From the NCBI GenBank assembly GCA_002011125.2, contig MTMF02000009.1:1288989-1352988 (forward strand): a DNA stretch of 64,000 bases, in the 5' to 3' direction. Shown here one piece after another: positions 15,442-42,253 of this stretch (its first letter is position 1; each line of letters begins with the position of its first letter). The notes beneath the pieces were generated by a model. That model had not been told where the DNA came from and made no database searches. It was given only the letters and a program-made list of their open reading frames with translations. The position numbers were made by a program, and so were the translations under genes. This stretch comes from Candidatus Hydrothermarchaeum profundi (lineage in GTDB: Archaea; Hydrothermarchaeota; Hydrothermarchaeia; Hydrothermarchaeales; Hydrothermarchaeaceae).

Positions 15442-15500
15442 ATCTCAAACCTCCAAATTCAATGCTAATAAATGCTAAGGCTCAAGACGTGGCCAAGGAT

Positions 15501-21897: not shown

Positions 21898-22367
21898 ATG
21901 AACATGTTACTGTAACCGGGGAAAGTGTTATCGTAAGACCCGTAGAGGAACTTTACATAATTAGGAGAATAATTGCGAGGATAATGGTGCCTCTCACTCA
22001 ATTATACGGCCTTTATGTGATAATGCATGGTGAGGGGGGTCCCGGCGGAGGATTTCAAGGGGGGGTAATCCTTGGTTCCGCTACGATTTTATATGTTTTA
22101 GTCTTCGGAGTGGACGAAGCTAAAAAAAGGATCTCTGAAAGTCTAAATAATCTTATGAAAAGTACGGGAGTATTAATATACGCAGGTATAGGATTACTTT
22201 GCATAATTTTTGGTGGATACTACTTAGAATATTACGCCCTTCCTTTAGGTCACCCAGAAAAAGCGAGCGAGCTAGGTATCCTTGGGGTTGAGATAGGGAT
22301 AGGAATAACAGTTTCTGCTGTGATGATATCGATATTTTTCGACTTAGCTGAGAGGTTTGAGAAATGA
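21885..22367 (+). CDS. mnhB: Mrp/Mnh antiporter subunit B
   Basis: HGEGGPGGGFQGG, EIGIGITV. Confidence 0.9.
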   Translation: MDEVDEHVTVTGESVIVRPVEELYIIRRIIARIMVPLTQLYGLYVIMHGEGGPGGGFQGGVILGSATILYVLVFGVDEAKKRISESLNNLMKSTGVLIYAGIGLLCIIFGGYYLEYYALPLGHPEKASELGILGVEIGIGITVSAVMISIFFDLAERFEK

Positions 22368-22726
22368 TTGAGTTTATCCTTGGCAAGTATAATTACTGGA
22401 TCTACATCATACTTATGATGATCGGATTTTACGCTATGATTGCCAAGAATAACCTAGTAAAAAAGATTATTGGCATGAATATATTTCAAACGGCCGTGTT
22501 TCTTTTCTATATATCTATTGGCGATGTCAAAGGGGGAACTGCTCCGATAGTATGGGAGGGCATGGAGAAGGTTATATATGTAAATCCTGTACCGCATGTG
22601 TTAATTCTAACGGCGATAGTTGTAGCTGTTAGCACGACTGCGGTCACACTTGCTGTTGTAATCAGAATATATGAAGAATTCGGCACTATCGAAGAAGATC
22701 GAATATTGGAGGCTTTGGAAGATTGA
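22364..22726 (+). CDS. mnhC: Mrp/Mnh antiporter subunit C
   Basis: NLVKKIIG, NPVPHVLILTAIVV. Confidence 0.92.
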   Translation: MIEFILGKYNYWIYIILMMIGFYAMIAKNNLVKKIIGMNIFQTAVFLFYISIGDVKGGTAPIVWEGMEKVIYVNPVPHVLILTAIVVAVSTTAVTLAVVIRIYEEFGTIEEDRILEALED

Positions 22727-24213
22727 TTACTGAACACTTCCCCATATTACTAATAGTTGTCCCGCTCACCTCGGCCTTGTCTACTCCCCTAATAGGTACT
22801 TTAAACAAAAAATATTGTTGGTATACCGCCATTTTCAGCATTTCTTTATCCCTTTTTATGTCACTTTATATTTTGAACGCAGTTATGCACACAGGTAGAA
22901 TAAGTTACTGGCTTGGTAATTGGGAGCCCCCATATGGAATCGAATATGCTATAGATTACTTGAATTCATATGTACTCGTTATAGTTACTTTTATCGCTTT
23001 AGCTGTAACAATTTATTCTAAATGGAGTGTAGAAAAGGAGCTGCCTGAGAAAACAGTTCTATTTTATACTGTATATCTTCTTTTAATAACAGGATTATTA
23101 GGGATAACTATAACAGGAGACATATTTAACCTATATGTATTCCTAGAGATAACATCTTTATCCGCTTATACACTAGTTGCTATCGGGAAAAAGAGGAACG
23201 CGTTAGTTGCAAGTTATAATTACGCTATTTTAGGCACCATATCCGCCACTTTCATACTCATTGCTATAGGGTACCTCTACATGGTTACTGGTACACTGAA
23301 TATGGCGGATTTGTCAACAAAACTCCCTCCTCTATACGATTCAAAAGTTGTCCTTACAGCGCTGGCATTTTTCATGGCAGGCTTCAGCATAAAAGTAGCT
23401 TTGTTCCCACTCCATGTTTGGTTGCCAGATGCATATACTCATGCACCCTCCGTGGTCAGTGCTATACTTGCAGCTACCTCTACCAAAGTAGCGGCCTATG
23501 CGATGATACGGGTAATGTTCACAGTCTTTAGCCCAGAGTTTATTATAGTGAGAGTTAATATAACTCACATACTCTCTTGGATAGCGGCCTTCGCGATAAT
23601 AGTTGGTTCTGTATTGGCGATTGCCCAAGTGGATATCAAAAAAATGCTTGCATATTCTAGCGTAGCACAGATAGGCTACATCATGCTTGGAATAGGTCTC
23701 TCTACAAAACTTAGCGTCACTGGGGGCATACTCCACATTTTGAATCACGCATTAATGAAAGCAACGCTTTTTTTAGTTGCTGGAGCTGTCATATATAAAA
23801 CCGGAATAAGAAACATAGAGGAATACAGAGGTTTACGTAGAGAAATGCCGCTGACAATGCTTGCATTTACTATCGCAGCTCTCTCTATGATCGGAGTACC
23901 CGGAACGGTGGGTTTTGTCAGTAAATGGTATCTCCTTTTAGGAGCATTACACGAAGGTAAGTGGGTATTTGCGTTAGTTCTGATTTTGAGTAGCTTATTA
24001 ATGCTTGTTTACTTTTGGAGAGTTATAGAAAATATATATTTCCCGAAAATGCATGTTGCAGTTGCGATGGATGGAGGAGATAAAAAGAAAGAATTACCAT
24101 ACACTATGTTAGTACCAATATTGATCTTAGCGCTACTTTGCATAGCCCTCGGGATACTTGCGTTTATTCCTCTAAAAATTGTAGGTATGATCTCTCAGAT
24201 GTTGGTGGGGTAA
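22723..24213 (+). CDS. mnhD: Mrp/Mnh antiporter subunit D (copy 1)
   Basis: TGDIFNLYVFLEI, KVALFPLHVWLPDAY, KKMLAYSS, NHALMK. Confidence 0.9.
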   Translation: MITEHFPILLIVVPLTSALSTPLIGTLNKKYCWYTAIFSISLSLFMSLYILNAVMHTGRISYWLGNWEPPYGIEYAIDYLNSYVLVIVTFIALAVTIYSKWSVEKELPEKTVLFYTVYLLLITGLLGITITGDIFNLYVFLEITSLSAYTLVAIGKKRNALVASYNYAILGTISATFILIAIGYLYMVTGTLNMADLSTKLPPLYDSKVVLTALAFFMAGFSIKVALFPLHVWLPDAYTHAPSVVSAILAATSTKVAAYAMIRVMFTVFSPEFIIVRVNITHILSWIAAFAIIVGSVLAIAQVDIKKMLAYSSVAQIGYIMLGIGLSTKLSVTGGILHILNHALMKATLFLVAGAVIYKTGIRNIEEYRGLRREMPLTMLAFTIAALSMIGVPGTVGFVSKWYLLLGALHEGKWVFALVLILSSLLMLVYFWRVIENIYFPKMHVAVAMDGGDKKKELPYTMLVPILILALLCIALGILAFIPLKIVGMISQMLVG

Positions 24214-24214
24214 A

Positions 24215-25693
24215 ATGGAGATAGTTTCAATTAAACCACTATTGGCAATTCTGGTATCATTGGTCGGCTCTGGGCTTATAATAGCTTCTAGTAGAAATCC
24301 AAATCTAAGAGAAGGATGGACTATTCTTATATCCCTGGCTAAGTTCGCGATAGTTGCATCGATGGTTCCGACGGTTTTATCTGGAAATAAAATGGTTTAT
24401 ACTCTTATTGAATTATTTCCCGGTATTGAAATAAAATTCAGAGCCGATGCGTTTGGTGTATTCTTTGCTGTAACGGCTTCCTTTTTGTGGATTATTACTT
24501 CTTTGTATTCCATTGGGTATATGCGTTCACTAAATGAACATTCTCAGACACGTTATTTTGCAGCTTTTGCTATAGCTTTATCAGCAACCATAGGAATCGC
24601 CTTCGCAGCTAATCTTGTAACTTTGTTTATGTTTTATGAGCTTCTCACTCTAGTTACCTTTCCATTAGTCACTCACAAGGATACACCTGAAGCTCGGCAA
24701 GCTGGAAGAAAATATTTGGCATATCTCCTTGGAACTTCTATTGCGTTCCAATTGTTTGCAATTGTTTTGACATATACATTTGCTGGTACACTCGAATTTT
24801 CTGAAGGAGGGATTTTAAGGGGTGCTGCACCTCCTTTAGTGTTAACACTCATATATTTCCTATTTATCGCAGGCTTTGCAAAGGCCGCTATAATGCCTCT
24901 CCATTCTTGGTTACCAACGGCCATGATAGCGCCAACCCCTGTAAGCGCATTGCTCCATGCAGTAGCCGTTGTCAAAGCAGGCGTATTTTCTATACTTAGA
25001 ATAATATTCTACATATATGGGGTAGACCTAATGAGCAGTCTAAATCTAGGTATACTCACTGCTTACTTTGTTTCTTTCACTATAATAGTAGCTTCTTTAT
25101 TTGCATTAACTCAGGATAACTTAAAGCTCAGGCTTGCTTACTCGACTATTAGCCAGCTTTCTTATGTTATTCTGGGAGCAGCTTTGTTAACAACTAGTGG
25201 TATGATTGGGGGGATTATGCATATAGCGGTTCATGCTTTTTCAAAGATAACCCTCTTCTTCTGTGCAGGCTCTATATACGTAGCATCCCATAAAACTAAC
25301 ATAAGCGAGTTGAGTGGTATTGGTAAAAAAATGCCATTAACTATGCTCGCTTTTACCGTAGGTTCTCTTAGCATGGTAGGTGTACCACCAGTAGCAGGGT
25401 TCATCAGCAAGTGGTATCTTCTGTTAGGGTCTGCCGAAGCACATAATATGTTGCTAATTATCGTATTATTATCTAGTTCGCTGTTAAATGCGGCTTACTT
25501 CTTTCCCATTGTCTGCAAAGCATTCTTCGAAGAACCAGCTGAAACTTTTGATGGAGAAGAAATTAAAGAAGCTCCCCTGTTTGTAGTAATCCCATTAATA
25601 TTAACGGCGATAGGCTCAATAATCCTATTCTTCTATCCTCAACCTTTCCTCAGAATAGCTTACGTAGTCGTTCAAAATGTTATAGGGGGCTAA
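24215..25693 (+). CDS. Mrp/Mnh antiporter subunit D-like (copy 2)
   Basis: PLHSWLP.AM.APTPVSALLHAVAVVKAG, RLAYSTISQLSY. Confidence 0.88.
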   Translation: MEIVSIKPLLAILVSLVGSGLIIASSRNPNLREGWTILISLAKFAIVASMVPTVLSGNKMVYTLIELFPGIEIKFRADAFGVFFAVTASFLWIITSLYSIGYMRSLNEHSQTRYFAAFAIALSATIGIAFAANLVTLFMFYELLTLVTFPLVTHKDTPEARQAGRKYLAYLLGTSIAFQLFAIVLTYTFAGTLEFSEGGILRGAAPPLVLTLIYFLFIAGFAKAAIMPLHSWLPTAMIAPTPVSALLHAVAVVKAGVFSILRIIFYIYGVDLMSSLNLGILTAYFVSFTIIVASLFALTQDNLKLRLAYSTISQLSYVILGAALLTTSGMIGGIMHIAVHAFSKITLFFCAGSIYVASHKTNISELSGIGKKMPLTMLAFTVGSLSMVGVPPVAGFISKWYLLLGSAEAHNMLLIIVLLSSSLLNAAYFFPIVCKAFFEEPAETFDGEEIKEAPLFVVIPLILTAIGSIILFFYPQPFLRIAYVVVQNVIGG

Positions 25694-25694
25694 T

Positions 25695-25934
25695 ATGAGG
25701 GAAATAAATTATTTCGATAAACCAAAAAACATCCGAAAACTGAAGATATTGTTCTATTCTAGTCTTGCATTAGTAGTGCTAATGGACCTTTTCTTCCAAA
25801 GGCATGTTAGATTCTCATGGGACAGGATACCCGGAATATATGCGTTATATGGATTTGTTTCATGTGTTTTGATAATATTCTTCTCAAAAGCATTAGGTAT
25901 ATTGATTAAGAGGAGTGAGGATTACTATGATTAA
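25695..25934 (+). CDS. Small two-TM protein of the Mrp operon
   Basis: FDKPKNI...PGIYALYGF..C...KR.EDYYD; translationally coupled to its neighbours. Confidence 0.75.
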   Translation: MREINYFDKPKNIRKLKILFYSSLALVVLMDLFFQRHVRFSWDRIPGIYALYGFVSCVLIIFFSKALGILIKRSEDYYD

Positions 25935-27741
25935 CTGGGTCCCCCCTGCTGTAATATTCATAGTCGGAGGGCTTTTTACTCCTCTCTTTAAAGGTAGGGT
26001 GAGGAAAGCTTACTTGATGATAGTGCCCTTTGTGGCATTTATAAACCTTCTATTAATGTCCGAAGGAACAAATTGGGTTGTCAATTTTTTAGGCTATGAA
26101 CTAATTTTTGGAAAGGTTGATAAGCTGAGCATGGTCTTTGGGTATATTTTTGTAATTATGGGCTTCTCTGGGATACTTTATGCTCTAAATGTTGAAAATA
26201 TTGGAGAACATATGGCCGCTTTCTTTTATATTGGGAGCGCTCTGGGAGTTGTATTTTCAGGGGACTACTTTTCTCTATTCGTATTCTGGGAAATAATGGC
26301 TTTTGCTTCCGTTCTTCTCATATGGTATAGAAAGAGAAAGGCTTCTTTAAGCGCAGGATTCAGGTATATCCTGGTTCACATAGTTGGAGGACTTTGCTTA
26401 CTTGGAGGGATTATATTACATTTTGTCAGTACCGGCTCTATTGAATTTGGAAGCATCGCTGAAAAAACCTTGGCAAGTTATCTTATTTTAATAGGATTTC
26501 TATTGAACGCGGCGGTACCTCCCCTATCTGCATGGTTACCGGATGCGTATCCAGAGTCAACTTATAGTGGAGGAGTGTTTCTTAGCGCTTTTACGACAAA
26601 AACCGCTGTTTATGTTCTCCTGAGAGCATTCGTAGGTTGGGAGTTACTCATATACCTTGGTACAATCATGACCCTCTACGGTATTGTATACGCTATACTT
26701 GAGAATGATATGAGGAGGATACTTGCTTACAGCATAATTAACCAGGTAGGATTCATGGTTGTGGGAGCTGGAATTGGAACACAAATGGCGATAAATGGAG
26801 CAGCTGCCCATGCCTTTACGCATATACTCTATAAGGGGCTTCTCTGGATGTCAGCGGGCTCCGTACTCTATATGACTGGGAAGAGCAAATGTACTGATCT
26901 TGGAGGGTTGTATAGGACCATGCCTCTAACCCTTATTTTTTGTATGGTTGGTGCTTTATCTATTTCTGCGTTCCCTCTTTTTAGCGGTTTTGTTAGTAAA
27001 TCCATGACTATAGAGGCTGCGGTCGAAGAGCATTTAACATTTATTTGGATTTTACTTATGGTTGCCTCGGCAGGTGTCTTCTTACATGCTGGTATAAAGT
27101 TTCCATACTTCGTATTTTTTGCAAAAGATTCTGGAATAAGAGTGAGGGATCCTCCAGTAAACATGTTATTGGCTATGGGTTTTGTATCGTTTCTTTGTAT
27201 ATTCTTGGGGGTTTATCCAAAGCCTCTTTACAATATTCTCCCATATCCTGTAGATTATGCGCCTTATACTGCTGATCATATTATTGAAACATTGCAACTT
27301 TTGTTATTCTCAGCATTAGCGTTTTTCATATTTTTAGGTTATCTTAAAAGGACAGAAACGATTACTCTCGACACCGATTGGTTCTATAGAACAGGTGCTA
27401 AGGCTTTTCTCTGGTTCGTTAACTATCCGTTATCTACTTTTTCAGCGAGAATTGGAGAGATTTTCTTTAAAACCTTACCTTCTGCTCTCGGAAAAATCGG
27501 TAGAAATCCTGTAGCAGTAGTGCAAATATTAATTGATGAAATCTATTTAACATTCTTAAAAGCAGTACACCATTTTTCAAGGACATTTTTAAGGAGAGAA
27601 TGGATTGAAGTAAAGAGAAGACTTGCAAAAGAAAGAAAAGTCTATCCAAGAGAGGTTGTTAGAAGAAGCCCCATTGGAACTGCGGTTTTACTAATTACTC
27701 TTTTCCTCTTTATATACCTCTTGGACTTGGTTGTAATTTAA
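25927..27741 (+). CDS. Mrp/Mnh antiporter subunit D-like (copy 3)
   Basis: WLPDAYPEST..G.VFLSAFTTKTAVY, RRILAYSIINQVG; start refined. Confidence 0.88.
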   Translation: MINWVPPAVIFIVGGLFTPLFKGRVRKAYLMIVPFVAFINLLLMSEGTNWVVNFLGYELIFGKVDKLSMVFGYIFVIMGFSGILYALNVENIGEHMAAFFYIGSALGVVFSGDYFSLFVFWEIMAFASVLLIWYRKRKASLSAGFRYILVHIVGGLCLLGGIILHFVSTGSIEFGSIAEKTLASYLILIGFLLNAAVPPLSAWLPDAYPESTYSGGVFLSAFTTKTAVYVLLRAFVGWELLIYLGTIMTLYGIVYAILENDMRRILAYSIINQVGFMVVGAGIGTQMAINGAAAHAFTHILYKGLLWMSAGSVLYMTGKSKCTDLGGLYRTMPLTLIFCMVGALSISAFPLFSGFVSKSMTIEAAVEEHLTFIWILLMVASAGVFLHAGIKFPYFVFFAKDSGIRVRDPPVNMLLAMGFVSFLCIFLGVYPKPLYNILPYPVDYAPYTADHIIETLQLLLFSALAFFIFLGYLKRTETITLDTDWFYRTGAKAFLWFVNYPLSTFSARIGEIFFKTLPSALGKIGRNPVAVVQILIDEIYLTFLKAVHHFSRTFLRREWIEVKRRLAKERKVYPREVVRRSPIGTAVLLITLFLFIYLLDLVVI

Positions 27742-27955: not shown

Positions 27956-28213
27956 CTAAATTGGACAATATTTCTGTATAATCTCTTTTTTAAGCCTATA
28001 TGCGATATACCTGTCATACCGTCCTTCCATTACATTATAAATATATTCGCTTATATCATTCCATTCGCATTTACCATCGAAGGTTTTCTCAAACTCTTCT
28101 AGCAACCTACTGAGTAGGGATGTGTCAGATTCTTCACCGCATCTAAGTTGACGCTTTCTCATTTTTCTAACTGCACAATCATCTTTCAATGGTTCTTTCA
28201 AATATAAGTCCAT
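27956..28213 (-). CDS. Hypothetical small protein
   Basis: 85 aa ORF downstream of pylD, TTATATA box upstream; TAG stop. Confidence 0.55.
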   Translation of the reverse strand: MDLYLKEPLKDDCAVRKMRKRQLRCGEESDTSLLSRLLEEFEKTFDGKCEWNDISEYIYNVMEGRYDRYIAYRLKKEIIQKYCPI

Positions 28214-28289: not shown

Positions 28290-29093
28290 TTAAAGGCTTG
28301 CGGATTTTACAGCCATAACAGCTACTCCGATCTGGAGGGGATCATGGATTAATCGGGTATCTAACTTTTCAATCCCTCTCTTGCTTACACCTAGAGGAAC
28401 TCCAGGAGCTGAAAGAACTGTTTCAGAGTTTATCCAGTCATCTTTTATAGTAGCTGGTGAGGCATTAATAATCAGATTAGTTTCTTTGATTGCTTCTTCT
28501 ATAGACCTATACGCTAATATTGATGGGCCCTCTAGCATTGATGCCTTAGAGAAATCCTTATCAACTAACAGGATTTTAGCCTTCTTTATCTTTAGATATC
28601 CTACTAGGCGTTTTCCTACCTTTCCTGCTCCTATAACCAAGACTTTTTTGCCTTGAAGTCCCCCTGCAGCTATTTCTAACGCAGTGGAATACCCTAGGGC
28701 CGTTGCATCGGCATTATCCACATATTTTCCGGATAGAATGTTTAGTGCAATAAAACGTAAATCATCAGCAATAAATAAAATGTTTGCGCCTCTGTCAATA
28801 GCTTCCTCTATTCCCGTGATATCTCTATTTTCAGTCACAAAGGATTCCATTCCTATATGAGATATGATTGAAGAAACAGCATAGCTAAATCCTGGGATCA
28901 CACCCTCTCCAAAAGTCATAGGTACAACACCAGCTATAGCGTTGTTTATATCAGGTTTTCTTTTTATATCCCCTTCTACTGCAGTAAAAGCCAATTCTCG
29001 TAAAGTACACTTTATTTTGTTCTTCAATTCTTTATCGTAATCGTTCAATCTTTGTGGGATACTCTTTACTATCTCTGAAGTCAATCTTGTCAT
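28290..29093 (-). CDS. pylD: 3-methylornithyl-N6-L-lysine dehydrogenase PylD
   Basis: MTRLT start, G.G.I.GFS, ADD.RFIA, DN..ATA.GY, Rossmann GAGKVG, PGVPLG, IHDPLQIGVAVM. Confidence 0.95.
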   Translation of the reverse strand: MTRLTSEIVKSIPQRLNDYDKELKNKIKCTLRELAFTAVEGDIKRKPDINNAIAGVVPMTFGEGVIPGFSYAVSSIISHIGMESFVTENRDITGIEEAIDRGANILFIADDLRFIALNILSGKYVDNADATALGYSTALEIAAGGLQGKKVLVIGAGKVGKRLVGYLKIKKAKILLVDKDFSKASMLEGPSILAYRSIEEAIKETNLIINASPATIKDDWINSETVLSAPGVPLGVSKRGIEKLDTRLIHDPLQIGVAVMAVKSASL

Positions 29094-30250
29094 TTTAAAT
29101 ACACCTCGGGATACGGATCTGAAAACTCTTTGATATCCAATTCGTTTATAATATTATCTAACACCTGATTTCTTTTTTCCCAAGTTTCTTCTAGGGACTT
29201 TTCTTTTACTATAAGGGTCGCGACCCATTTACCCCTACTACTCCTATAATTAGTAATCATTTCAAAAGAGCCAAAAAGACCCTTATGGATGCTTAAATTA
29301 TCAGCTGAAGCCATCAGATGCTCTCCTCCGACTTGGATGCATGATTTTGAAACAGTTATATGTTCATATAAGATTGCACTTTTTGGCGATGTCACCACCT
29401 TCGGGAGTGTATTGTTAGTAAACAAATTAACAAGAAGCTCTAACATATTTACACCACTTGAATGGTAAACGGCTGTCGGAGTTTGACTTGGAAGTCTAGC
29501 ATCGATTTCTATTACTTTTGGTTTTCCCTCCAATACTATAGCCTCAACATCTGTTATTCCTGTTAGATGTAATCCGTCAGCTATTTTTGTCCCTATTTTT
29601 TTGATCTTTTCTTCAATTGAAGAAGATAGAGTTAATGGAGCTAAAACTCTTTTACAGTCAAAATTTGAATCAAATTCTAGCATAGTACATAAAAGAGGGA
29701 CTCCCTCTCCCTCTTTTGCAATAATCTCTATAGATACTGAAGGCCCTTTAATGAATTCTTGAATAACCTTGTTCGATGAAGGGGATATTCTCCCTACCGT
29801 ATTCTGAAGTTGAGCTTTATTCCACACTATTGAGACATCCTGGCTTCCGCTAGAGTTTGATGGTTTAATTATTAATGGAAAATCTGCATTAGGATACAAT
29901 CGGGGTATTGGAATACCTATTTTCTCGAAAAACTTGTTAGAACGGATTTTAGAACTCGAGATGTAATATGAGTTTGTGTCATGTATAAGGGGAGTCCCCT
30001 TTGCGTCTTTAGTAATCTTTCTTAAAGTTGCCTTGTTTTCAGTTGCCGGCAGGATAACATCTGCGGTTCTATAAATCTTTTTTGCTTCTTTAGCATTCTT
30101 GGTTATATCTATTATATGGGTTTCATCTGCAAGACTTGCTGCAGGTACATCGGGATTTTTATCGATTAAAATACTTTCATAACCGGCTTTTTTTGATAAA
30201 TATACAGCTTCTAGTCCTTGGAGCTTCCCCCCTACTATGCATATCCTCAT
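29090..30250 (-). CDS. pylC: 3-methylornithine--L-lysine ligase PylC
   Basis: IVGGKLQG.EA.YL, ATP-grasp IIKPS..SGS, DCKRV, EIDARLPSQTPTAVYHSSG.N, GEH. Confidence 0.96.
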   Translation of the reverse strand: MRICIVGGKLQGLEAVYLSKKAGYESILIDKNPDVPAASLADETHIIDITKNAKEAKKIYRTADVILPATENKATLRKITKDAKGTPLIHDTNSYYISSSKIRSNKFFEKIGIPIPRLYPNADFPLIIKPSNSSGSQDVSIVWNKAQLQNTVGRISPSSNKVIQEFIKGPSVSIEIIAKEGEGVPLLCTMLEFDSNFDCKRVLAPLTLSSSIEEKIKKIGTKIADGLHLTGITDVEAIVLEGKPKVIEIDARLPSQTPTAVYHSSGVNMLELLVNLFTNNTLPKVVTSPKSAILYEHITVSKSCIQVGGEHLMASADNLSIHKGLFGSFEMITNYRSSRGKWVATLIVKEKSLEETWEKRNQVLDNIINELDIKEFSDPYPEVYLK

Positions 30251-31401
30251 GAAGACACCTTATGGGGCGAGAATTTCTTATATTTCTCTATCCATCTGAT
30301 ATAGTCTTTCACAGTTGCGCTCTTTAATTTGAGTTCTTTTAGATAGGGCTTTATCCCGTCAACCGTTCTTTTACCTATTCGGATATCTAAATCATGCTGA
30401 GCAACTCCTGCGAGGTCTCCTTGGGGGGGGATAATAGATGTAACTACATTAGCTCCAGCCATTAATCTGGCTTGAAGTCCGGCTACGCCTTCTATATCCA
30501 AGGAGGCGGGTATCAACTTGTCTTGATGTACGAGTCTCATTACAGCAATGGTAAGAAGCTCTTCTTCTCTGGGCGGAGTTCTCCAATTTTCCATAGGCGT
30601 TCCGATCTGAGGTATAAAACTCATAGCTCTTATCTGGTGGGCATTAATTTTTTTCATCTCACTAATTGAATATGCCCTATCTTTTAGCGATTCTCCGACT
30701 CCTAGAAGAATGCCCTCCTCTATCAGCATACCTTCCTTTACAGCTATTTCTTTAACTCTCATTCTAGTATCGTAGTCTTGATCGATTCTTAGCTTAGAGA
30801 ATAAATCTCTATTATGAGTTTCTTGGTAGCATGCGTACCAATCTGCTCCAGCCCTAGATAAGTCCCCAAGGATTTTATGAGGAACAACGCCTGGGGATAC
30901 CATTATAGGGATGTCAACTTCATTTCTAACTCTTTTGAGTAAATCCAGCAATTTTGAAAAATCTTGTCTACCGTGGATTAATGGATCTTCACTCATAGTA
31001 AGATCTATTAAATGGACTCCAGAATCTTCTAGGTCTTTTGCAATTTTTATTACTTCTTCCGGAGTTTTCCGGTATCTAGGGCTCTTTAAATTTGGTTTCC
31101 TATAAAAACAGAAAGTACATCTGTTACGGCAGTATGTTGTAAAGTATATGAAACCATAGAAAAAAATCTTGTTACCAAAGAATTTCTCTCTTATTCTTTT
31201 TGCTGCGGAAAAAACGCCTTCTATATCAACTGGATCCCTTAGCCCTAATAAATACTCAGTCTCTACTCTGGATAGAGTGTTTAGGTTTAAAGCTTTTTCT
31301 ACAATGCTCTCAGCCTTTTTATCATTAAATTCTAACTCATTGTTCACGCGTATCTCTCCTATGTAAAACGCAATTCCGCATTTCTTTAAGTACTTTGTCA
31401 C
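30247..31401 (-). CDS. pylB: Methylornithine synthase PylB (radical SAM)
   Basis: YGFIYFTTYCRNRCTFCFYR (CxxxCxxC), VHLIDLTM.ED, WYACYQETH, LIPASLD.EG, AGANVVTSIIP; true start may be the GTG at 31347. Confidence 0.96.
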   Translation of the reverse strand: MTKYLKKCGIAFYIGEIRVNNELEFNDKKAESIVEKALNLNTLSRVETEYLLGLRDPVDIEGVFSAAKRIREKFFGNKIFFYGFIYFTTYCRNRCTFCFYRKPNLKSPRYRKTPEEVIKIAKDLEDSGVHLIDLTMSEDPLIHGRQDFSKLLDLLKRVRNEVDIPIMVSPGVVPHKILGDLSRAGADWYACYQETHNRDLFSKLRIDQDYDTRMRVKEIAVKEGMLIEEGILLGVGESLKDRAYSISEMKKINAHQIRAMSFIPQIGTPMENWRTPPREEELLTIAVMRLVHQDKLIPASLDIEGVAGLQARLMAGANVVTSIIPPQGDLAGVAQHDLDIRIGKRTVDGIKPYLKELKLKSATVKDYIRWIEKYKKFSPHKVSS

Positions 31402-31445
31402 TCCTGCAAAACAACCTCAAAGTATCCCTAAGAATCTTGTATTAT

Positions 31446-32279
31446 TTAAATTATATCGAGCCTCACGCAATCAAGGTAAATTAGACTTCTACCAATTTTC
31501 TTTATATTAGCGAAACCTTCCTTTGCCAAGATAATTCTCTCGATCCCAAAACCTATCCCTGCCCAGGGATCGTATATCCCCCAGTTTTTATCGAGCTCAT
31601 GAGGGCCTGCTACACCAGAGCCTATTTCTATACCTCTCGAATGCACATCAAGAGTTTTCCCATAACATTCAGCATCTTCATAAGAAAGCTCATATTCCAT
31701 CTCAAGGGCGTCCATAATCTTTGTTATCAACTCTTTTAAACGTTCTTCCGGATCTTTCTCGGGTGATAGTTCAACTAGGTTTAGCATGGTAAATTCCGGC
31801 AAATGGCGAGCTCCTTTGGACTCCTTACGGAAACATGGCCCAATCTCGAAAATCCTGATCGGTCTTGGCCATAATCTACCGAGATGCCCAAGTAGAAAAT
31901 AGAGGTTTGGAGCTAGCATAGGTCTCAGGCAGTGATCTCGATCAATCCAAAAGATTTGGTTCCAGAGATGGTCTCCCTCATGGATATTCATACGTTCTAG
32001 GAGTCCTCTACTTAAAATAATTGGAGTAACGACTTCCGTAAAACCTATCGATGTAAGTAAGGATACCAGTTTTGATTCAATTTTTCGTAGATCGGGTCTC
32101 TTTTTATAACTCCGAAGAAGTTCAAGTCTTTCCTTGTTTTTGGTTGTAAGCCTATAACTGATTTTCTTGAAAACCTCTTCCCTTTCCTCGCTTGATTTAA
32201 ATTTGAGTATAAGCTCTTCCTCTTCCAGCATTAGTTCTTTAAGCCGTTGTTTTTGAGCATCTGTAAAAGTTAAATCCAT
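31446..32279 (-). CDS. pylSc: Pyrrolysyl-tRNA synthetase catalytic subunit
   Basis: CLRPMLAPNLY, FEIGPCFRKES.G..HL.EFTMLN, YG.T.DV, PWAGIGFGIER. Confidence 0.97.
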   Translation of the reverse strand: MDLTFTDAQKQRLKELMLEEEELILKFKSSEEREEVFKKISYRLTTKNKERLELLRSYKKRPDLRKIESKLVSLLTSIGFTEVVTPIILSRGLLERMNIHEGDHLWNQIFWIDRDHCLRPMLAPNLYFLLGHLGRLWPRPIRIFEIGPCFRKESKGARHLPEFTMLNLVELSPEKDPEERLKELITKIMDALEMEYELSYEDAECYGKTLDVHSRGIEIGSGVAGPHELDKNWGIYDPWAGIGFGIERIILAKEGFANIKKIGRSLIYLDCVRLDII

Positions 32280-32294
32280 TTCTATGTCCCTTCC

Positions 32295-32588
32295 TTAGGA
32301 TTTCTTACCAGCAAATCTCTTCAACTTCCAATCAGGTATTTTGCATTTCTTGCAAGGAGTTATGTATCTTCTTTGCCGTAGCCATCTAGCCCTCCTACTA
32401 TTCTTCGAGTTCCTTCCTCTAGAGACAGCATTGCAGTGCGTTCTTACAATAATAAAAGATCCTCTTTCTTCGATTTCTTTAACTCCATGTAAAGTACCTT
32501 TTTTAGATACCCACAGATTTATTTTTTTTACAAGATCTAACAACGGAACACGTTTATCGAAAATATCTTTCTTGCTCATTTGAATCAC
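32295..32588 (-). CDS. pylSn: Pyrrolysyl-tRNA synthetase N-terminal tRNA-binding subunit
   Basis: LW.S..GTLHG, THC, NS.NSR.ARWLR, C..C.IPDWKL..F with Zn ligands H/C/C/C. Confidence 0.95.
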   Translation of the reverse strand: MIQMSKKDIFDKRVPLLDLVKKINLWVSKKGTLHGVKEIEERGSFIIVRTHCNAVSRGRNSKNSRRARWLRQRRYITPCKKCKIPDWKLKRFAGKKS

Positions 32589-32595
32589 ATATTAG

Positions 32596-32664
32596 CGGAG
32601 GGCCCGAGAGTCGAACCCGGCTGCATGGAGTTAGAGTCCATGCGGTCTCCCCGACCTGCCCTCC
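32596..32664 (-). tRNA. pylT: tRNA-Pyl (CUA, amber suppressor)
   Basis: GGAGGGC-A-GGTC GGGGA GACC-G-CATGGA CTCTAAC TCCATG-CAG-CCGGG TTCGACT CTCGG-GCCCTCC-G: one-nt acceptor/D linker, 6-bp anticodon stem, 3-nt variable loop, G73. Confidence 0.96.
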
Positions 32665-32703
32665 TATGGCGTACTCTACTAAAGTAAAATGGCTTTTTCT
32701 AGG

Positions 32704-32788
32704 ATATTTAAATTTTTGGCTAAATGGTATTGATGCTATGGTTATACTTTCTATGAAGATTAGAAATTCTACCGTAAAGGTTTTATAG
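32704..32788. promoter_or_regulatory. Divergent BRE-TATA promoters for pylT (minus) and mtaA-like gene (plus)
   Basis: Minus strand CCAAAAA-TTTAAAT at about 32706-32719; plus strand CCGTAAAGG-TTTTATA at 32773-32788. Confidence 0.6.
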
Positions 32789-32822
32789 TTCTTGCGTGTT
32801 TCTTTTGTCTTGGTGATTTTGT

Positions 32823-33830
32823 ATGGATGTAGTGGATCGTTTTTTTAATGCACTTAAGGGTAAGGAGGTGGATAGGCCTCCGGTAACATGTGCTAATCAG
32901 ACGGCTACAGTTGAGCAGATGGAGAAAGTTGGAGTATTTTGGCCTGAAGCACATAAAGATGCAGAGAAAATGGCTGTTTTAGCAGCTCAGGCATGGGAGC
33001 AACTAGGGCTGGAGGTTGTTGGTGTTCCTTTTTGCCAGACAGTTGAGGCTGAGGTTTTGGGATGTGAAATTAAGTGGAGTGATAAGAAGGACGCTATTCC
33101 CAGCGTACCTTTCGAGGGTTATGCCAGTCCAGATGATGTCACGGTTCCTGAGAACCTTCTGGAACAAGGAAGGATTCCTGTAGTCTTTAAGGCTTTGGAG
33201 ATTTTGAGGGAGAAATATGGTGAGCAAGTGCCAATCATGGGCCACGTTAATGGGCCTTTTAGCCTTGCGTCACATCTTACAGATCCTAGCAAGATGATGA
33301 AACTTATTCTCACGAAGCCGGATGTTGTTCCAGAGTTCTGTCGTATTTCAGTAGATGTTATTTCAGAGTATGCTAATGCAATGTATGATCATGGAGCCGA
33401 TGTGGTAGTTATAGAGGATATGATCGCAAGCGTTGACCTATTAGGTCCAAAGTTTTATGAAGACTTTAGTTTTCCTTTTGAGAAAGAGCTTGCAAGCCGT
33501 CTCAAGGGACCATCGATTTTGCACATTTGTGGAAATGCTACTTCAGTATTAGACAACATGATCGCTACAGGTTCTGATGGTATTAGTATTGATAGTAAAG
33601 TTGATGCCAGTTTAGCGGTTGAAAAGAGTAGGGGAAAATGTGCGGTGCTAGGGAATGTAGATGCATTAGTATTACTAAATGGCACTGTAGATGAGATTCA
33701 AAAAGAGACGATGAAGTCGATTGAAGCCAATGTTGACCTCGTTGCGCCGGCTTGTGCGATTTCTCCTCTTAATAGTAATAAAAATATCAAAGCTATGGTG
33801 GACACCGTAGTTGAATATGGGGGTAAGTGA
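32823..33830 (+). CDS. MtaA/CmuA family methylcobamide:thiol methyltransferase (UroD fold)
   Basis: WPEAH.D.EKMA.LA, VPFCQTVEAE.LGC, GRIP, GPFSLA, Zn motif LHICG and C-terminal APAC. Confidence 0.9.
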   Translation: MDVVDRFFNALKGKEVDRPPVTCANQTATVEQMEKVGVFWPEAHKDAEKMAVLAAQAWEQLGLEVVGVPFCQTVEAEVLGCEIKWSDKKDAIPSVPFEGYASPDDVTVPENLLEQGRIPVVFKALEILREKYGEQVPIMGHVNGPFSLASHLTDPSKMMKLILTKPDVVPEFCRISVDVISEYANAMYDHGADVVVIEDMIASVDLLGPKFYEDFSFPFEKELASRLKGPSILHICGNATSVLDNMIATGSDGISIDSKVDASLAVEKSRGKCAVLGNVDALVLLNGTVDEIQKETMKSIEANVDLVAPACAISPLNSNKNIKAMVDTVVEYGGK

Positions 33831-33986: not shown

Positions 33987-34670
33987 ATGCACATAATGGA
34001 AGGATTTTTACCGGGACCTTGGTGGTACTTGTGGTTCGTCTTCTCTGTACCAGTTGTCGGTTATGGGCTATGGAGAATGAAAAAGGTTGTTGAGGAGAAT
34101 CCTAATGTCAAAATATTACTTGCTTTAGCTGGCGCTTTTGTATTCGTGCTATCTTCGCTAAAACTTCCATCTGTTACAGGCTCTTGTTCACATCCCACGG
34201 GTACCGGGCTTAGTGTTATTCTATTCGGTCCGAGCGTAACAGCATTACTGTCAAGTATAGTACTTCTATATCAGGCTCTACTCCTTGCTCATGGAGGATT
34301 AACAACATGGGGCGCTAATGTTGCAAGTATGGGCATATTGGGGCCTCTCGTTGGCTGGTTAGTTTTTATTGCCTCTAGAAAAGTAAATCTAAATATGAAT
34401 CTAGCAGTATTCTTAACAGCTGCGGTCGCTGACCTAGCTACTTATGTAGTAACATCGATTCAACTAGCAGTCGCTTTTCCTGCAGCTACTGGAGGTGTAT
34501 TAACAAGTTTCAAGGCTTTTTTTGTAATCTTTGCTGTAACTCAAGTTCCTCTTGCGATAGTAGAGGGGCTTGTAACGGTAGTAATATTCAAATATCTTGT
34601 AGAATTACGAAGCGACCTTTTGGTGCATATGAATGTAATAAAACCAGCTGAGGAGGTGAGTACTGAGTGA
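33987..34670 (+). CDS. cbiM: Cobalt ECF transporter S component
   Basis: N-terminal MHIMEGFLP, GSCSHPTG, LLAHGGLTT. Confidence 0.96.
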   Translation: MHIMEGFLPGPWWYLWFVFSVPVVGYGLWRMKKVVEENPNVKILLALAGAFVFVLSSLKLPSVTGSCSHPTGTGLSVILFGPSVTALLSSIVLLYQALLLAHGGLTTWGANVASMGILGPLVGWLVFIASRKVNLNMNLAVFLTAAVADLATYVVTSIQLAVAFPAATGGVLTSFKAFFVIFAVTQVPLAIVEGLVTVVIFKYLVELRSDLLVHMNVIKPAEEVSTE

Positions 34671-34954
34671 AGACTCCTATTATCTTTCTTCTTATACTCG
34701 TTGTTTTATTGGTACCTTTTATAATTAATGAGAATGCAGAATGGGGGGGCGCGGATGCTCAAGCAGAAGTAGCGATATCGGAGTTTACTGGGGGAACATA
34801 TGAGCCTTGGTTCAGTCCTATATGGGAGCCTCCTAGCGGGGAAATTGAAAGCCTTCTCTTTTCTCTACAAGCTGCACTGGGTGCAATTATAGTTGGATAC
34901 TTTATTGGGTACCATAAAGGTAAAAACTCAGTTGAAGAGGTTCAGGCGAGGTGA
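34667..34954 (+). CDS. cbiN: Cobalt ECF transporter CbiN
   Basis: GGADAQA, YEPWFSPIWEPPSGEIESLLFSLQAA. Confidence 0.96.
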   Translation: MKTPIIFLLILVVLLVPFIINENAEWGGADAQAEVAISEFTGGTYEPWFSPIWEPPSGEIESLLFSLQAALGAIIVGYFIGYHKGKNSVEEVQAR

Positions 34955-34961
34955 AAAATAG

Positions 34962-35753
34962 ATGCATGTACATCATCCCTTTGACATTTATACATACAAT
35001 AATGCCTTAAAAAGAGTACCTCCCCACTTTAAAGTATTAGTCTCTTTGGTTGCATTGCTTATAGTAGTAGCTTCTCCCTCCTTTGTGGCGCCTATCGCAA
35101 TTTTTGGTCTAATGTACTTTTTGACTGTGGTGAAGGCTAAGATCCCTAATAAAGTTTATCTAAAAGCGTTAACTGCTCCTTTGTTATTTACTATTCCCAC
35201 CCTCCCGCTTATGGCTTTCTTCTTTGGTGGGGGTGATGTATTATTCACAGTAAATATCTTGGGCTTTAGTCTTGCGGCTACTAGAGACGGGTTTAACTTA
35301 GCCCTCTTAGTTGCTTCACGGGTTATAGCGGGTAGTGCAAGCCTATTCTTCTTGGCTTTTACTACTCCTATGACTGAGATTTTTGGTGTAATGAGAGCCC
35401 TTAAATTCCCATCCCTTTTTGTCGAAATCGCTATGATGATATATCGATACATCTTCGTACTTATAGAAGAAGCAGAACAAATGATTTTTGCGCAAAATGT
35501 GAGACTCGGGTATAACACTTATAAGAGGAGTTATGAGTCTTTTGGACTATTAGTTAGCAATCTCTTTATAAGGTCTTGGCAGAAAGGTGAGCGAATTTTT
35601 AGAGCATTAGAAGCCCGGGGATATGAGGGGCAATTTGTTTTCTCTGATCAATCGCAACAAAAAATTACTTTTTTGCCTTTGTCTATATTGGGGGCTATAG
35701 GCATAGGTCTTGTTTTATTGGCGTACTACACTAGGGGGCTCACAATTTTTTAA
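34962..35753 (+). CDS. cbiQ: Cobalt ECF transporter T component
   Basis: TTP, MIYRYIFVL.EE, ARGY. Confidence 0.93.
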   Translation: MHVHHPFDIYTYNNALKRVPPHFKVLVSLVALLIVVASPSFVAPIAIFGLMYFLTVVKAKIPNKVYLKALTAPLLFTIPTLPLMAFFFGGGDVLFTVNILGFSLAATRDGFNLALLVASRVIAGSASLFFLAFTTPMTEIFGVMRALKFPSLFVEIAMMIYRYIFVLIEEAEQMIFAQNVRLGYNTYKRSYESFGLLVSNLFIRSWQKGERIFRALEARGYEGQFVFSDQSQQKITFLPLSILGAIGIGLVLLAYYTRGLTIF

Positions 35754-35763
35754 GGGATTGAAA

Positions 35764-37113
35764 ATGGAAGCTATTATAGCTACGAGATCACTGGACTACG
35801 TTTACCCAGATGGTACAAAGGCGTTGAAGGATATCAACGTTTCTATAGAGAGAGGGCTTAAAGTAGCTTTTATTGGTCCAAATGGAGCTGGGAAATCGAC
35901 TTTTCTGTTGCATCTCAATGGTATTTTAAGGCCTACTAGAGGGGAAGTTTTTATTGAGGGGAAGCCTCTAAAGTACGATAAGCAATCTTTAAAAAAGGTT
36001 AGGCAGAAGGTGGGTATGGTATTTCAAAACCCTGACGACCAACTATTCGCTCCTCAAGTATGGCAAGATGTGGCTTTTGGTCCGAGGAACATAGGGCTAC
36101 CTGAAAGTGAGGTAAGGGAAAGAGTTGACAAAGCATTGAAAATGGTTGGAATAGAACATCTCGCAGAGAAACCTCCTCATTTCTTGAGTGTAGGGCAAAA
36201 AAAGCGGGCAGCTATTGCTGGAATATTAGCTATGGATCCAGAGATCCTCGTATTAGACGAGCCTCTTAGCCATCTAGACCCTCAGGGTAGAAATGAACTT
36301 ATAGAAATCCTAGATGATCTAAGCTTCCTAGGTAAAACTATTCTCGTTGCAACTCATAGTGTAGAGTTCGCCTATTTTTGGGCGGATTACATATATGTAT
36401 TAATTTCTGGGACTATAAAATCTAGTGGAACTCCAGATGAAATTTTCAACGATTCAGAATTATTAAGTTCTGCCATGTTAGAGTCTCCAACACTTGTGGA
36501 GATTTATAATGAGCTTAAGGATAGAAAGTCGATATTAGGGAAAAAGACCCCAAAAAGCCGTCTTGACCTTATAAGCATGTTAGATGTGCCATTCTTAAAG
36601 TATATCGAGGCGCCTGAGGGAATAAGAGAAGGAGACACTGTGGAGCTAGCAATTGAAAATGGAAATCTTAAAATTCTTGGTGTGGCAGACTCTTCGTCAG
36701 ATAATAATTTAGGTGAAATAGTTGAGATAGTTAACGGAGAGTTAGCCGCTGTGAAAATACTGAGTCCAGGAGGTATAAAAAGAAGAGGAAAGATATTTAT
36801 CTGTAGTGTTGATTCCTTAGAAAAATCTAAGTTATTTGAGTTCCTAGATAATAATGATATTAAACATATAGGAGCAAAGGGTACCAGAGCGAAGCTATAT
36901 GCGCGTAGGGAAAATATACCTATGGATATTAAGAGAGATGTCATTAATGAAACAATGTTAAAAGCGCTTTCCGGTAAAAAGGTGCTACTGATTGTGAGTG
37001 ATGGAATGGTTGAAGCTACAAGAAAACTGTTAGAAGATTGTATAAAAGAGAATGGTTATGATCTCTCGATAGACATTCTTGCACGGGAATTAAAAGGGGA
37101 CCAGGTAGGCTAA
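35764..37113 (+). CDS. cbiO: Cobalt ECF transporter ATPase with C-terminal extension
   Basis: GPNGAGKST, FQNPDDQLF, LSVGQKKR, LDEP; about 190 aa extra C-terminal region; start refined. Confidence 0.9.
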   Translation: MEAIIATRSLDYVYPDGTKALKDINVSIERGLKVAFIGPNGAGKSTFLLHLNGILRPTRGEVFIEGKPLKYDKQSLKKVRQKVGMVFQNPDDQLFAPQVWQDVAFGPRNIGLPESEVRERVDKALKMVGIEHLAEKPPHFLSVGQKKRAAIAGILAMDPEILVLDEPLSHLDPQGRNELIEILDDLSFLGKTILVATHSVEFAYFWADYIYVLISGTIKSSGTPDEIFNDSELLSSAMLESPTLVEIYNELKDRKSILGKKTPKSRLDLISMLDVPFLKYIEAPEGIREGDTVELAIENGNLKILGVADSSSDNNLGEIVEIVNGELAAVKILSPGGIKRRGKIFICSVDSLEKSKLFEFLDNNDIKHIGAKGTRAKLYARRENIPMDIKRDVINETMLKALSGKKVLLIVSDGMVEATRKLLEDCIKENGYDLSIDILARELKGDQVG

Positions 37114-37164
37114 AAGCCTATGAATCTGGGAGGAGAGGTAATCTATAGAAAGCGAGGTGAAAAA

Positions 37165-37569
37165 ATGATAGGCGTTGTTGTAGTTGGGCATGGAAGTAGA
37201 CTACCGCAGAGTAAGGGTATCTACGAGGAGATTGGTAGGAAGGTCGCAGAGAAGTCGGGTTTCGAGGTTAAAGTCGGTTATATGAAACACTGGCGTCCTA
37301 CTCTTGTTGAAGCCATAAACTCGTTTATAAAAGAGGGTAAGAAAAAAATAGTTATCGTGCCTGTTTTCCTTCTCCCCGGATTACATGTTTCTGAAGATAT
37401 TCCAGTCTTACTTGGACTAAAAGAAGGAGAATCGCCCGAGTTTGGCTATGAAAGAATAAATGTCCCAGATGATGTTGAAATCTTCTATGCTAATAGTTTG
37501 GGAGCGGATGAGAGACTGGCCGATATCGTGGTTGATAGGATACATGAGTCCTTGAATGGATCTAAATAA
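37165..37569 (+). CDS. cbiX: Sirohydrochlorin chelatase, short CbiX
   Basis: VGHGSR, VP.FL.PG.HV.EDIP; start refined to the ATG after GAGGTGA. Confidence 0.9.
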   Translation: MIGVVVVGHGSRLPQSKGIYEEIGRKVAEKSGFEVKVGYMKHWRPTLVEAINSFIKEGKKKIVIVPVFLLPGLHVSEDIPVLLGLKEGESPEFGYERINVPDDVEIFYANSLGADERLADIVVDRIHESLNGSK

Positions 37570-37624
37570 GTTAAATAATAGAGGTAGCAAGCATTATAAA
37601 TAGTTTGCAGAGAGGTGATATAAA

Positions 37625-38332
37625 GTGGATCTTTTTATCTTTATCTTCGCATCAATTTCAATTGCGGTACTTCATACGCTTGTTCCAGACCACTATTTAC
37701 CAATAGCTTTGTTGGCACAGGCGCAAAATTGGAGTCTGAGGAAGACAGCTTTGATAACCGGACTTGCAGGGATGGGACATGTAGCGACTTCTATAGTTAT
37801 AGGTATTTTAGCTATGGGGATTAGTATGCAATTTTCTGAAAACTTGGCTTCAAAGGCTGAGTTATTAACTAAGGGGATGCTAATATCTTTTGGTCTTTTA
37901 TATACCCTTTATGCAGTTAAGTCAGGTGGACATCTGCACTACCATCATTCTCACGGCGCTTCTGATGTCCATGAGCATAAGAAAAAAAACGGAATTGGAG
38001 TCACAGGTTATACTATGGCTCTTATCGTAGGGCTAATGCCCTGTGTGCCAGCGATACCAATATTTATTTCAGCAAGTTTAAAGAGCACATATTACGCTGC
38101 CTTATCTATGGTAGCGTTTGCGATTTTCACTTTATTAACAATGTATATTATGGTGCTTGTAAGTATCGCTCCAAAGAAATACGGCTTAATGCCACCTATA
38201 ATAAGGAGGAATATGGATATAATCTCTGGAATTATAATTTTTCTTACAGGCATCATCATCACGATATTTGACCTAAGAAATAAGAAGAGTCCCAAAAGAT
38301 TCTTAGTTGATAAAACGGAGGCTTATGTTTGA
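37625..38332 (+). CDS. Ni/Co transporter-like membrane protein (NiCoT/UreH/RcnA-like)
   Basis: HTLVPDH (HX4DH), G.GH, His-rich loop GHLHYHHSH, GLMPC. Confidence 0.75.
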   Translation: MDLFIFIFASISIAVLHTLVPDHYLPIALLAQAQNWSLRKTALITGLAGMGHVATSIVIGILAMGISMQFSENLASKAELLTKGMLISFGLLYTLYAVKSGGHLHYHHSHGASDVHEHKKKNGIGVTGYTMALIVGLMPCVPAIPIFISASLKSTYYAALSMVAFAIFTLLTMYIMVLVSIAPKKYGLMPPIIRRNMDIISGIIIFLTGIIITIFDLRNKKSPKRFLVDKTEAYV

Positions 38333-41185: not shown

Positions 41186-41186
41186 A

Positions 41187-42245: not shown

Positions 42246-42253
42246 TAGTTTAA

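Follow-up and report, generated by a model that had tools for sequence, protein, structure and literature searches.

The window analysed in this study, a stretch of 64,000 nucleotides from Candidatus Hydrothermarchaeum profundi (contig MTMF02000009.1, positions 1,288,989 to 1,352,988), carries on its minus strand a cassette for the biosynthesis and genetic encoding of pyrrolysine (Pyl). A tRNA gene with an amber anticodon, pylT, is followed downstream by five full-length open reading frames (ORFs), pylSn, pylSc, pylB, pylC and pylD, the first two of which code for the separate parts of PylRS, the pyrrolysyl-tRNA synthetase (Table 1). The five proteins were scored against NCBIfam equivalog models with curated cut-offs and all exceeded them, and the cassette is complete and intact. 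A preliminary description, made from the letters of the sequence, had already recognized the amber-anticodon tRNA and the five intact minus-strand genes, and ARAGORN, a covariance model and the equivalog scores confirm it on this point. The pylSn ORF begins 6 nt after pylT, while pylB and pylC, as well as pylC and pylD, overlap by 4 nt, and the presence of PylB, PylC and PylD predicts a capacity for Pyl biosynthesis.

The genome that contains the window (G000) comprises 2.19 Mb in 19 contigs, with a GC content of 39.1% and a completeness of 97.65%. The two best matches of the aspartyl-tRNA synthetase (AspRS) encoded in the window are 81% and 77% identical to it, and its named matches, at 65-73% identity, are assigned to Hydrothermarchaeota, Hydrothermarchaeales or Hydrothermarchaeaceae, one Ca. 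Pyrohabitans and unclassified archaea. Archaeal markers inside the window (XerA, KaiC_arch and the non-discriminating AspRS) agree with this lineage, and by these protein matches the host is a Hydrothermarchaeota archaeon.

Table 1. Features of the pyl locus, with positions and strand in the 64,000-nt window, followed by the equivalences of the PylSc pocket and the methylamine methyltransferase genes found elsewhere on the contig. Enzyme names are predictions from the family matches given.
Feature	Position	Strand	Evidence and remarks
85-aa ORF	27956-28213	-	76 nt downstream of pylD
pylD, 3-methylornithyl-N6-lysine dehydrogenase	28290-29093	-	TIGR03911, 221.9 bits (cut-off 150.05); Pfam PylD_N
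pylC, ATP-grasp 3-methylornithine--L-lysine ligase	29090-30250	-	TIGR03909, 380.1 bits (cut-off 248.3)
pylB, radical-SAM methylornithine synthase	30247-31401	-	TIGR03910, 452.2 bits (cut-off 348.2)
pylSc, catalytic class II PylRS subunit, 277 aa	31446-32279	-	TIGR02367, 294.6 bits (cut-off 178.15)
Sn-Sc spacer GGAAGGGACATAGAA	32280-32294	-	15 nt, from sequence
pylSn, small tRNA-binding PylRS subunit	32295-32588	-	TIGR03912, 97.4 bits (cut-off 51.15)
pylT, tRNA-Pyl, anticodon CUA	32595-32664	-	ARAGORN, fold, covariance model
Divergent intergenic region, pylT / MtaA-like gene	32665-32822	.	158 bp, read from sequence
MtaA/MtbA-like methylcobamide methyltransferase (URO-D family)	32823-33830	+	NF004889, 374 bits; divergent from pylT
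CbiMNQO cobalt uptake and anaerobic cobalamin biosynthesis genes	33987-47282	+	Pfam
Pocket, window PylSc = M. mazei			A123=A302, L126=L305, Y127=Y306, L130=L309
Pocket, window PylSc = M. mazei			N167=N346, V169=C348, Y206=Y384, V223=V401
Pocket, window PylSc = M. mazei			L229=L407, W239=W417
mtmB			Pfam MtmB, 767.4 bits; internal TAG at codon 202/461
mtbB (first)			TIGR02368, 678.8 bits; internal TAG at codon 354/468
mtbB (second)			TIGR02368, 463.9 bits; internal TAG at codon 352/462
mttB			TIGR02369, 706.9 bits; internal TAG at codon 333/494

According to ARAGORN, pylT is the sole tRNA-Pyl gene both of the window and of the whole 2.19-Mb genome. The tRNA has a 7-bp acceptor stem, a single base (A8) and a 4-bp D stem with a 5-nt D loop; its anticodon stem measures 6 bp, its variable loop 3 nt (CAG), and its discriminator base is G, while the CCA end is not encoded. 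Its predicted fold is a compact cloverleaf of -37.5 kcal/mol (z -3.34), and none of 200 shuffled sequences folded as well. Because no Rfam family reaches its gathering score at pylT (the best, the tRNA-Sec model, attains 22.7 bits against a gathering score of 47), we built a covariance model of our own from 22 tRNA-Pyl genes of other organisms, from which the gene of the window was excluded. The model, of 72 positions, has a single match in the window, at 32593-32664 on the minus strand (81.7 bits, E ~1e-17), which spans all 72 positions with every stem pair standard. ARAGORN, fold and covariance model agree in predicting a compact amber-suppressor tRNA-Pyl, at most 78% identical to the 91 other tRNA-Pyl genes of the 160 pyl loci that were fetched for comparison. 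In the divergent intergenic region upstream of it, a TTTAAATA box about 41-48 nt before the 5' end of the tRNA and a TTTATAG box about 45 nt before the ATG of the MtaA-like gene are putative archaeal TATA boxes.

The synthetase is encoded in two adjacent genes. The pylSn ORF opens at a GTG (32588), an ATG at 32579 being the likelier start and giving a protein of 94 aa, and stops with TAA (32295-32297). PylSn aligns with the N-terminal domain of the M. mazei enzyme (PDB 5UD5, E 1.8e-12), and its residues H34, C52, C79 and C82, one His and three Cys, are identical to those of the 5UD5 chain; we take these four residues to be zinc ligands. The N-terminal domain of PylRS has been described as binding one zinc ion and clasping the T and variable loops of the tRNA (PMC11467909). 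Between the pylSn stop and the ATG of pylSc (32279) lie 15 nt, as the preliminary description had stated, and the two ORFs share one frame. The spacer, which has a Shine-Dalgarno-like start rich in purines, consists of five sense codons in this common frame, and one base change would give a 380-aa Sn-Sc fusion.

Among the proteins of the PDB, PylSc is best matched by the PylSc of Desulfitobacterium hafniense (3DSQ/2ZNI; 270 bits, E 1.4e-79), followed at lower ranks by the ISO4-G1 enzyme (228 bits) and the M. mazei catalytic domain (~194 bits). The substrate pocket was mapped through a HMMER alignment to PDB 8IFJ, ungapped over query residues 105-275, combined with the structure-based equivalences published for the ISO4-G1 and M. 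mazei enzymes (PMC10094482); the index of the 8IFJ chain equals the native ISO4-G1 number plus 3, as verified on Ala121, Leu124, Tyr125 and Met128. Eight of the nine mapped positions (M. mazei A302, L305, Y306, L309, N346, Y384, V401 and W417) are identical to those of M. mazei, and the ninth has Val in place of Cys348, all as the preliminary description had read them. Val at this position is also reported for the M. alvus and ISO4-G1 enzymes (PMC10094482). PylSc is, by these alignments, a predicted PylRS catalytic domain with a Pyl-binding pocket, and the occurrence of PylSn as an ORF of its own assigns the enzyme to the split PylRS class (S+). In a search that admitted proteins of up to 485 aa, the lengths of the best 120 PylSc relatives range over 273-331 aa, so no fused form occurs among them, and 44 candidates examined for longer proteins with PylSn yielded none, which is weak evidence.

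Genes that would depend on the cassette are found on the same contig, where mtbB, mtmB and mttB lie within 22 kb and a second mtbB lies further off. Each of the four has one in-frame TAG, and in every case the family match crosses it, so that the genes appear as Pyl clients with a UAG at a conserved site; we take codons 202, ~356 and ~334 to be the Pyl sites of M. barkeri. The intact cassette and these four genes together give good support to the reading of UAG as pyrrolysine in this host, which the preliminary description had proposed as the decoding of a 22nd amino acid. A corrinoid-protein gene (TIGR02370, 235-278 bits) stands beside each methyltransferase gene, and the methylamine island further includes an ammonium-transporter-like gene and RamA (TIGR04270, 790.6 bits). 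TAG is absent from a second MtmB-like gene. The mtmB gene itself (G000:C9:1885113-1886459; locus L169:11092-12477, minus strand) stands out in composition: its GC content is 49.3% (z +2.65 against the ORFs of the genome), no ORF of matched length has a more deviant codon usage, which sets it apart from mtbB, mttB, ramA and the pyl genes, and its terminal TAG is followed by another stop one codon on. It may be a more recent arrival.

The genome, 97.65% complete, has no match to McrA (TIGR03256) or MtrA (Pfam), both of which were matched in control methanogens, and the organism therefore seems to use methylamines without forming methane; by its gene content it would not be a methylotrophic methanogen with McrA and an Mtr complex. 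Two MtrH-family genes are present.

The use of UAG elsewhere in the genome was assessed on 2020 non-overlapping ORFs of at least 100 aa, a crude set obtained with a simple script and no gene caller. These ORFs stop at TAA (948), TGA (706) or TAG (366), and the 18.1% share of TAG points to ordinary UAG suppression, not to recoding of the whole genome. Backup stops are not enriched after TAG, the next in-frame TAA or TGA following at a median of 14 codons (n=366) compared with 12 after TGA (n=705) and 16 after TAA (n=947; Mann-Whitney p 0.81 for TAG versus TGA/TAA). Thirty-seven of the TAG-ended ORFs can be read on for at least 80 codons, among them the two mtbB and mttB. When the other 34 frames were translated with TAG as a sense codon and scanned against Pfam, no domain extended across a TAG: 7 frames had no match, and in all 27 matched frames each domain either lies wholly ahead of the TAG or is part of another, downstream gene that happens to be in frame. 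Pyl in the tgtA, GvpN-like and PAS-sensor frames was considered and rejected, their TAGs being located in spurious N- or C-terminal extensions. In another place (G000:C16:6669-9605, locus L229), a 641-aa ORF with a Piwi domain (prokaryotic Argonaute) ends in TAG and is followed in frame by an ORF with a SIR2_2 domain; read-through in a Pyl-decoding cell would join both members of this defence-type pair.

Genetic Code 34, in which TAG is rare or absent as a stop and internal TAGs are many, does not appear to be used by this genome. Its TAG usage fits the Group A defined by Kivenson et al. 2024 (bioRxiv 10.1101/2024.09.30.615893), whose members have at least 15% TAG among their stops, restrict Pyl to one or a few genes, acquired the machinery recently and are not recoded, in distinction to those Pyl archaea that made the transition to Code 34. 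The host shares with Group A archaea the TAG share of at least 15%, the use of Pyl in few genes and the intermixing with relatives that lack Pyl.

The order of the cassette was compared across 160 loci, comprising the best 80 of 147 GTDB relatives and the best 80 of 187 metagenome relatives. Both Sn and Sc are present in 100 of these loci; Sn is found elsewhere in 81, mostly after pylD, and directly upstream of Sc in 19, including bacterial ones (Natroniella, Peptococcaceae and others). The background that the preliminary description gave on gene order holds in this survey, in which Sn is away from Sc in most loci, and PMC3941956 and PMC9630628 agree with it. The full order pylT-Sn-Sc-B-C-D recurs in two surveyed loci, both from Natroniella (Halobacteroidaceae, a bacterium), and Bathyarchaeota loci have the order T-Sn-Sc-B. 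According to Borrel et al. 2014 (PMC3941956), pylSnScBCD is one of two usual bacterial layouts. Sn and Sc share a frame in 4 of the 19 other Sn-upstream loci, which does not exceed the third or so expected by chance, and in none of the 19 is the Sn stop a TAG, which gives no hint of a fusion by Pyl-dependent read-through. On both counts we rejected the common frame as a conserved device or a means of such read-through.

Closest to our case are the split archaeal enzymes of Guo et al. 2022 (PMC9630628), whose catalogue lists separate PylSn and PylSc in seven archaea, Ca. Hydrothermarchaeum profundi and Methanomicrobia archaeon JdFR-19 among them. The present locus agrees with these in the separate adjacent genes, and with the Hydrothermarchaeota enzyme described there in phylum and in a PylSc that is nearer to bacterial PylSc than to the Methanosarcina enzyme, here by PDB ranking and tree. 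In the same source, Sn and Sc are close in all archaea with a split PylRS and often overlap, and an indel of one base would in many cases be enough to join them. Natroniella sulfidigena and N. acetigena (loci L024 and L031) have the same pylT-Sn-Sc-B-C-D order and a short Sn-Sc gap. These hosts are bacteria, however, their PylSc is 50-53% identical to that of the window, their Sn and Sc are not in one frame, and pylT lies 0.5-3.4 kb from pylSn instead of 6 nt. D. hafniense (3DSQ, 2ZNI; class S in the nomenclature of the Chin laboratory, PMC11467909) provides the best match among solved structures and resembles our case in having PylSn in trans, G as the discriminator and the compact type of tRNA, but it is a bacterium with the order pylT-Sc-B-C-D-Sn, as in most of the surveyed loci with both subunits. 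For class S enzymes, PylSn has been described as toxic or difficult to clone (PMC11467909). The fused PylRS of M. mazei and M. barkeri (pylTSBCD; 2ZIM, 5UD5) is similar in cassette order, in eight of nine pocket residues and in the His and three Cys of the N-terminal domain. It differs in being one polypeptide with a linker of 40-155 aa, according to PMC9630628, and in having Cys at position 348, and its hosts are methanogens with few TAG stops.

Sequence relationships of PylSc point in the same direction as its structural matches. Its closest relatives are two metagenome proteins, P0002 (72% identity) and P0003 (69%); the rest of the best 120 relatives are at most 58% identical and mostly bacterial, and among the relatives carried on contigs that were retrieved in genome and metagenome scans none exceeds 54%. 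A tree inferred with IQ-TREE from 94 rows (the protein of the window, 80 GTDB loci and 13 of 119 non-self matches, with no Methanosarcinaceae row; SH-aLRT support only) groups the protein of the window with P0002 and P0003 (support 99). This group falls inside an 18-row set (support 99), apart from a bacterial clade of 76 rows, and the set also holds three Bathyarchaeota, two Natroniella, one Methanomassiliicoccaceae, Methermicoccus (P0100) and other rows. The lineage, on which the preliminary description had made novelty depend, is placed by AspRS among Hydrothermarchaeota. For a Hydrothermarchaeota species and JdFR-19, PMC9630628 reports greatest similarity to the bacterial PylSc of Acetohalobium and Halarsenatibacter.

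Within the phylum the trait is rare. PylSc (TIGR02367) occurs in one of 38 species-representative genomes and in one of the 21 of high quality, and this one is the genome of the window; the same counts, 1/38 and 1/21, were obtained for MttB. RamA is above its cut-off in three of the 38. Genes of the MtaA-like type are present in 17 of the 38, so that Pyl-independent methyl transfer via corrinoids seems to be native to these archaea. In a relative (contig C7 of genome G018), the stretch from PIMT to the last Mrp gene corresponds to 15.6-27.7 kb of the window and ends where the cassette begins, and beyond the last Mrp gene this contig has no match to the window at 27.7-47.3 kb. We set no insertion boundary, because the contigs of the relatives are short and have extra Mrp paralogues.

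The genes around the cassette form a coherent setting for corrinoid-dependent methyl transfer, with the MtaA-like gene, CbiMNQO and the cobalamin genes beside it. The MtaA-like protein, which scores below the cut-offs of the MtaA and MtbA equivalogs, is likely to perform the second step of the methylamine pathway, judging from its family and position, and the cobalt-uptake and cobalamin genes beyond it would supply the corrinoid needed by Pyl-dependent methyltransferases. On the other side, the 85-aa ORF after pylD has no Pfam or NCBIfam match, no match in the 160 other pyl loci and a single relative (60% identity, 114 aa) in 1.84 billion representative proteins. Perhaps it forms the tail of the pyl operon as a gene specific to this lineage, its membership being uncertain.

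Several further gene clusters were noted. A second methyl-transfer island (G000:C9:1584752-1600525) contains two MtrH-family genes, an AcsV/RamA-like activase and three MtaA-like genes. In the window, an Mrp-type antiporter cluster (20316-27741, plus strand) has three large MrpD/NuoL-like paralogues in a row, and its genes are also found in relatives with a different order of paralogues (loci L190-L194). A complex-I-like operon (47726-57826, plus strand) codes for 20-kDa, 30-kDa and 49-kDa subunits, a NuoH-like subunit and three antiporter-like subunits, and a CBS-domain gene is placed between those for the 30-kDa and 49-kDa subunits. A XerA-like tyrosine recombinase gene (14674-15574, minus strand) adjoins tRNA-Thr(CGU) some 13 kb from the pyl cassette, an association that is the usual look of a mobile-element integration site.

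We interpret the locus as a working chromosomal Pyl system of the known split type in a non-methanogenic deep-sea Hydrothermarchaeota archaeon, known here from its genes, and give this reading a probability of roughly 0.85. By homology, PylB, PylC and PylD would make pyrrolysine from two lysines, and PylSc would charge it onto tRNA-Pyl(CUA) while PylSn, a separate small protein with a zinc domain, holds the tRNA in trans. The charged tRNA would then decode the single in-frame UAG of mtmB, both mtbB and mttB, allowing methyl groups of mono-, di- and trimethylamine to pass to corrinoid proteins kept active by RamA. From there the methyl groups may enter C1 metabolism, not methane, via the MtaA-like enzyme or the MtrH-family enzymes. 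Since UAG still serves as a stop elsewhere in the genome, suppression would have to be partial, or switched on only when needed; an inducible model is known from Acetohalobium arabaticum. As to origin, the presence of PylSc in one of 38 genomes suggests that the host lineage gained the Pyl trait laterally, a reading based on phyletic distribution that agrees with Guo et al. 2022 (PMC9630628) in what that text says of split archaeal PylRS. A more specific version, which we hold only tentatively and consider doubtful as a whole, is that a nitrate-respiring non-methanogen gained the Pyl cassette and the methylamine methyltransferases laterally, that methyl groups are oxidised or assimilated via stand-alone MtaA-like or MtrH-like transferases, and that Pyl decoding is tolerated beside the 18% of genes ending in UAG, presumably through a pyl operon that is on only with methylamines.

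Some observations weigh against this account in one part or another. The methyl acceptor is a guess, the MtaA-like protein being under the equivalog cut-offs of both MtaA and MtbA. The crude ORF set missed mtmB, which was concealed behind a longer shadow ORF, and the screen for Pyl proteins is accordingly not exhaustive. With regard to lateral gain, loss in the 37 other lineages may be an alternative, and the completeness of the three genomes from this family is only 62-82%. The pyl genes, moreover, have GC contents (z -0.97 to +0.22) and codon usage typical of the genome, so that composition gives no sign of recent transfer.

Two other explanations would assign UAG or the cassette a different role. 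Complete Pyl machinery might accompany a fully recoded genome (Genetic Code 34) in which every TAG means pyrrolysine and never stop, a transition that other Pyl archaea are reported to have made (bioRxiv 10.1101/2024.09.30.615893). We find this scarcely credible for a genome in which TAG ends 18.1% of 2020 crude ORFs, when 15% or more already defines the non-recoded Group A of that source; reading through TAG, furthermore, leads to junk tails or into the next gene in 27 of 27 Pfam-matched frames, no domain spans a TAG, and backup stops after TAG are not enriched. It might instead be supposed, given that no other of the 38 phylum genomes has the cassette, that it is no longer used and is what a transfer left behind, silent or in decay. 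This is very unlikely in view of five full-length ORFs above their equivalog cut-offs, a pocket and His/Cys residues that have been kept, and tRNA-Pyl stems free of any non-standard pair. In the four client genes, likewise, the TAG has been retained and the sequence to either side of it is conserved: without suppression all four would be cut short, and yet they are otherwise undamaged.

A third explanation concerns the synthetase and not the function of the system, namely that the Sn-Sc pair is a direct intermediate of the fused PylS of Methanosarcinaceae, either just before fusion or newly broken from a fused gene by a nonsense mutation. The order collinear with pylTSBCD and the common frame, interrupted by TAA and five sense codons within one base change of the 380-aa fusion, speak for it, and the same idea has been raised for split archaeal PylRS generally (PMC9630628). 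The preliminary description likewise saw in the adjacency of Sn and Sc the arrangement expected just before fusion. That view loses force with the adjacency already stated for split archaea (PMC9630628) and found in bacteria as well among the 19 of 100 loci, and with a common frame in only 4 of 19 other loci, a chance level. PylSc also scores 270 bits against the D. hafniense enzyme and only ~194 bits against the M. mazei catalytic domain, and the tree, which includes no Methanosarcinaceae row, places it with P0002 and P0003 among Bathyarchaeota, Natroniella and Methanomassiliicoccaceae. None of its best 120 relatives is longer than 331 aa; that no longer PylSn protein was found is weak evidence. 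We therefore regard a direct intermediate as improbable; these data favour neither a pre-fusion state nor a post-fission one, and the idea is not new.

The finding carries little weight as a discovery, since each main feature is in print: the split and adjacent archaeal PylSn and PylSc, their occurrence in Hydrothermarchaeota, the kinship to bacterial PylSc and, since 2014, the order pylSnScBCD have all been published. The novelty as an orthogonal tool that the preliminary description had envisaged falls away, because Hydrothermarchaeota are already catalogued with a split system (PMC9630628) and another split archaeal pair, that of JdFR-19, has been tried in E. coli (bioRxiv 10.1101/2024.09.30.615893). 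For Hydrothermarchaeota, the gene-by-gene description, the TAG statistics and the methylamine genes given here go beyond the available text of PMC9630628. In practical terms, the locus provides a further natural pair of PylRS and tRNA-Pyl; the identity of its tRNA to the 91 compared does not exceed 78%, and that of its PylSc to the contig-borne relatives retrieved does not exceed 54%. For the biology of the organism, it offers a clean example of UAG meaning Pyl in four genes while about 18% of genes end in UAG, and a reasonable case in which to study how a cell copes with codon ambiguity shortly after it has acquired the machinery. If the tentative account of a nitrate-respiring host with laterally gained genes were true, the expansion of the genetic code could be observed here at an early stage, in an archaeon that is not a methanogen.

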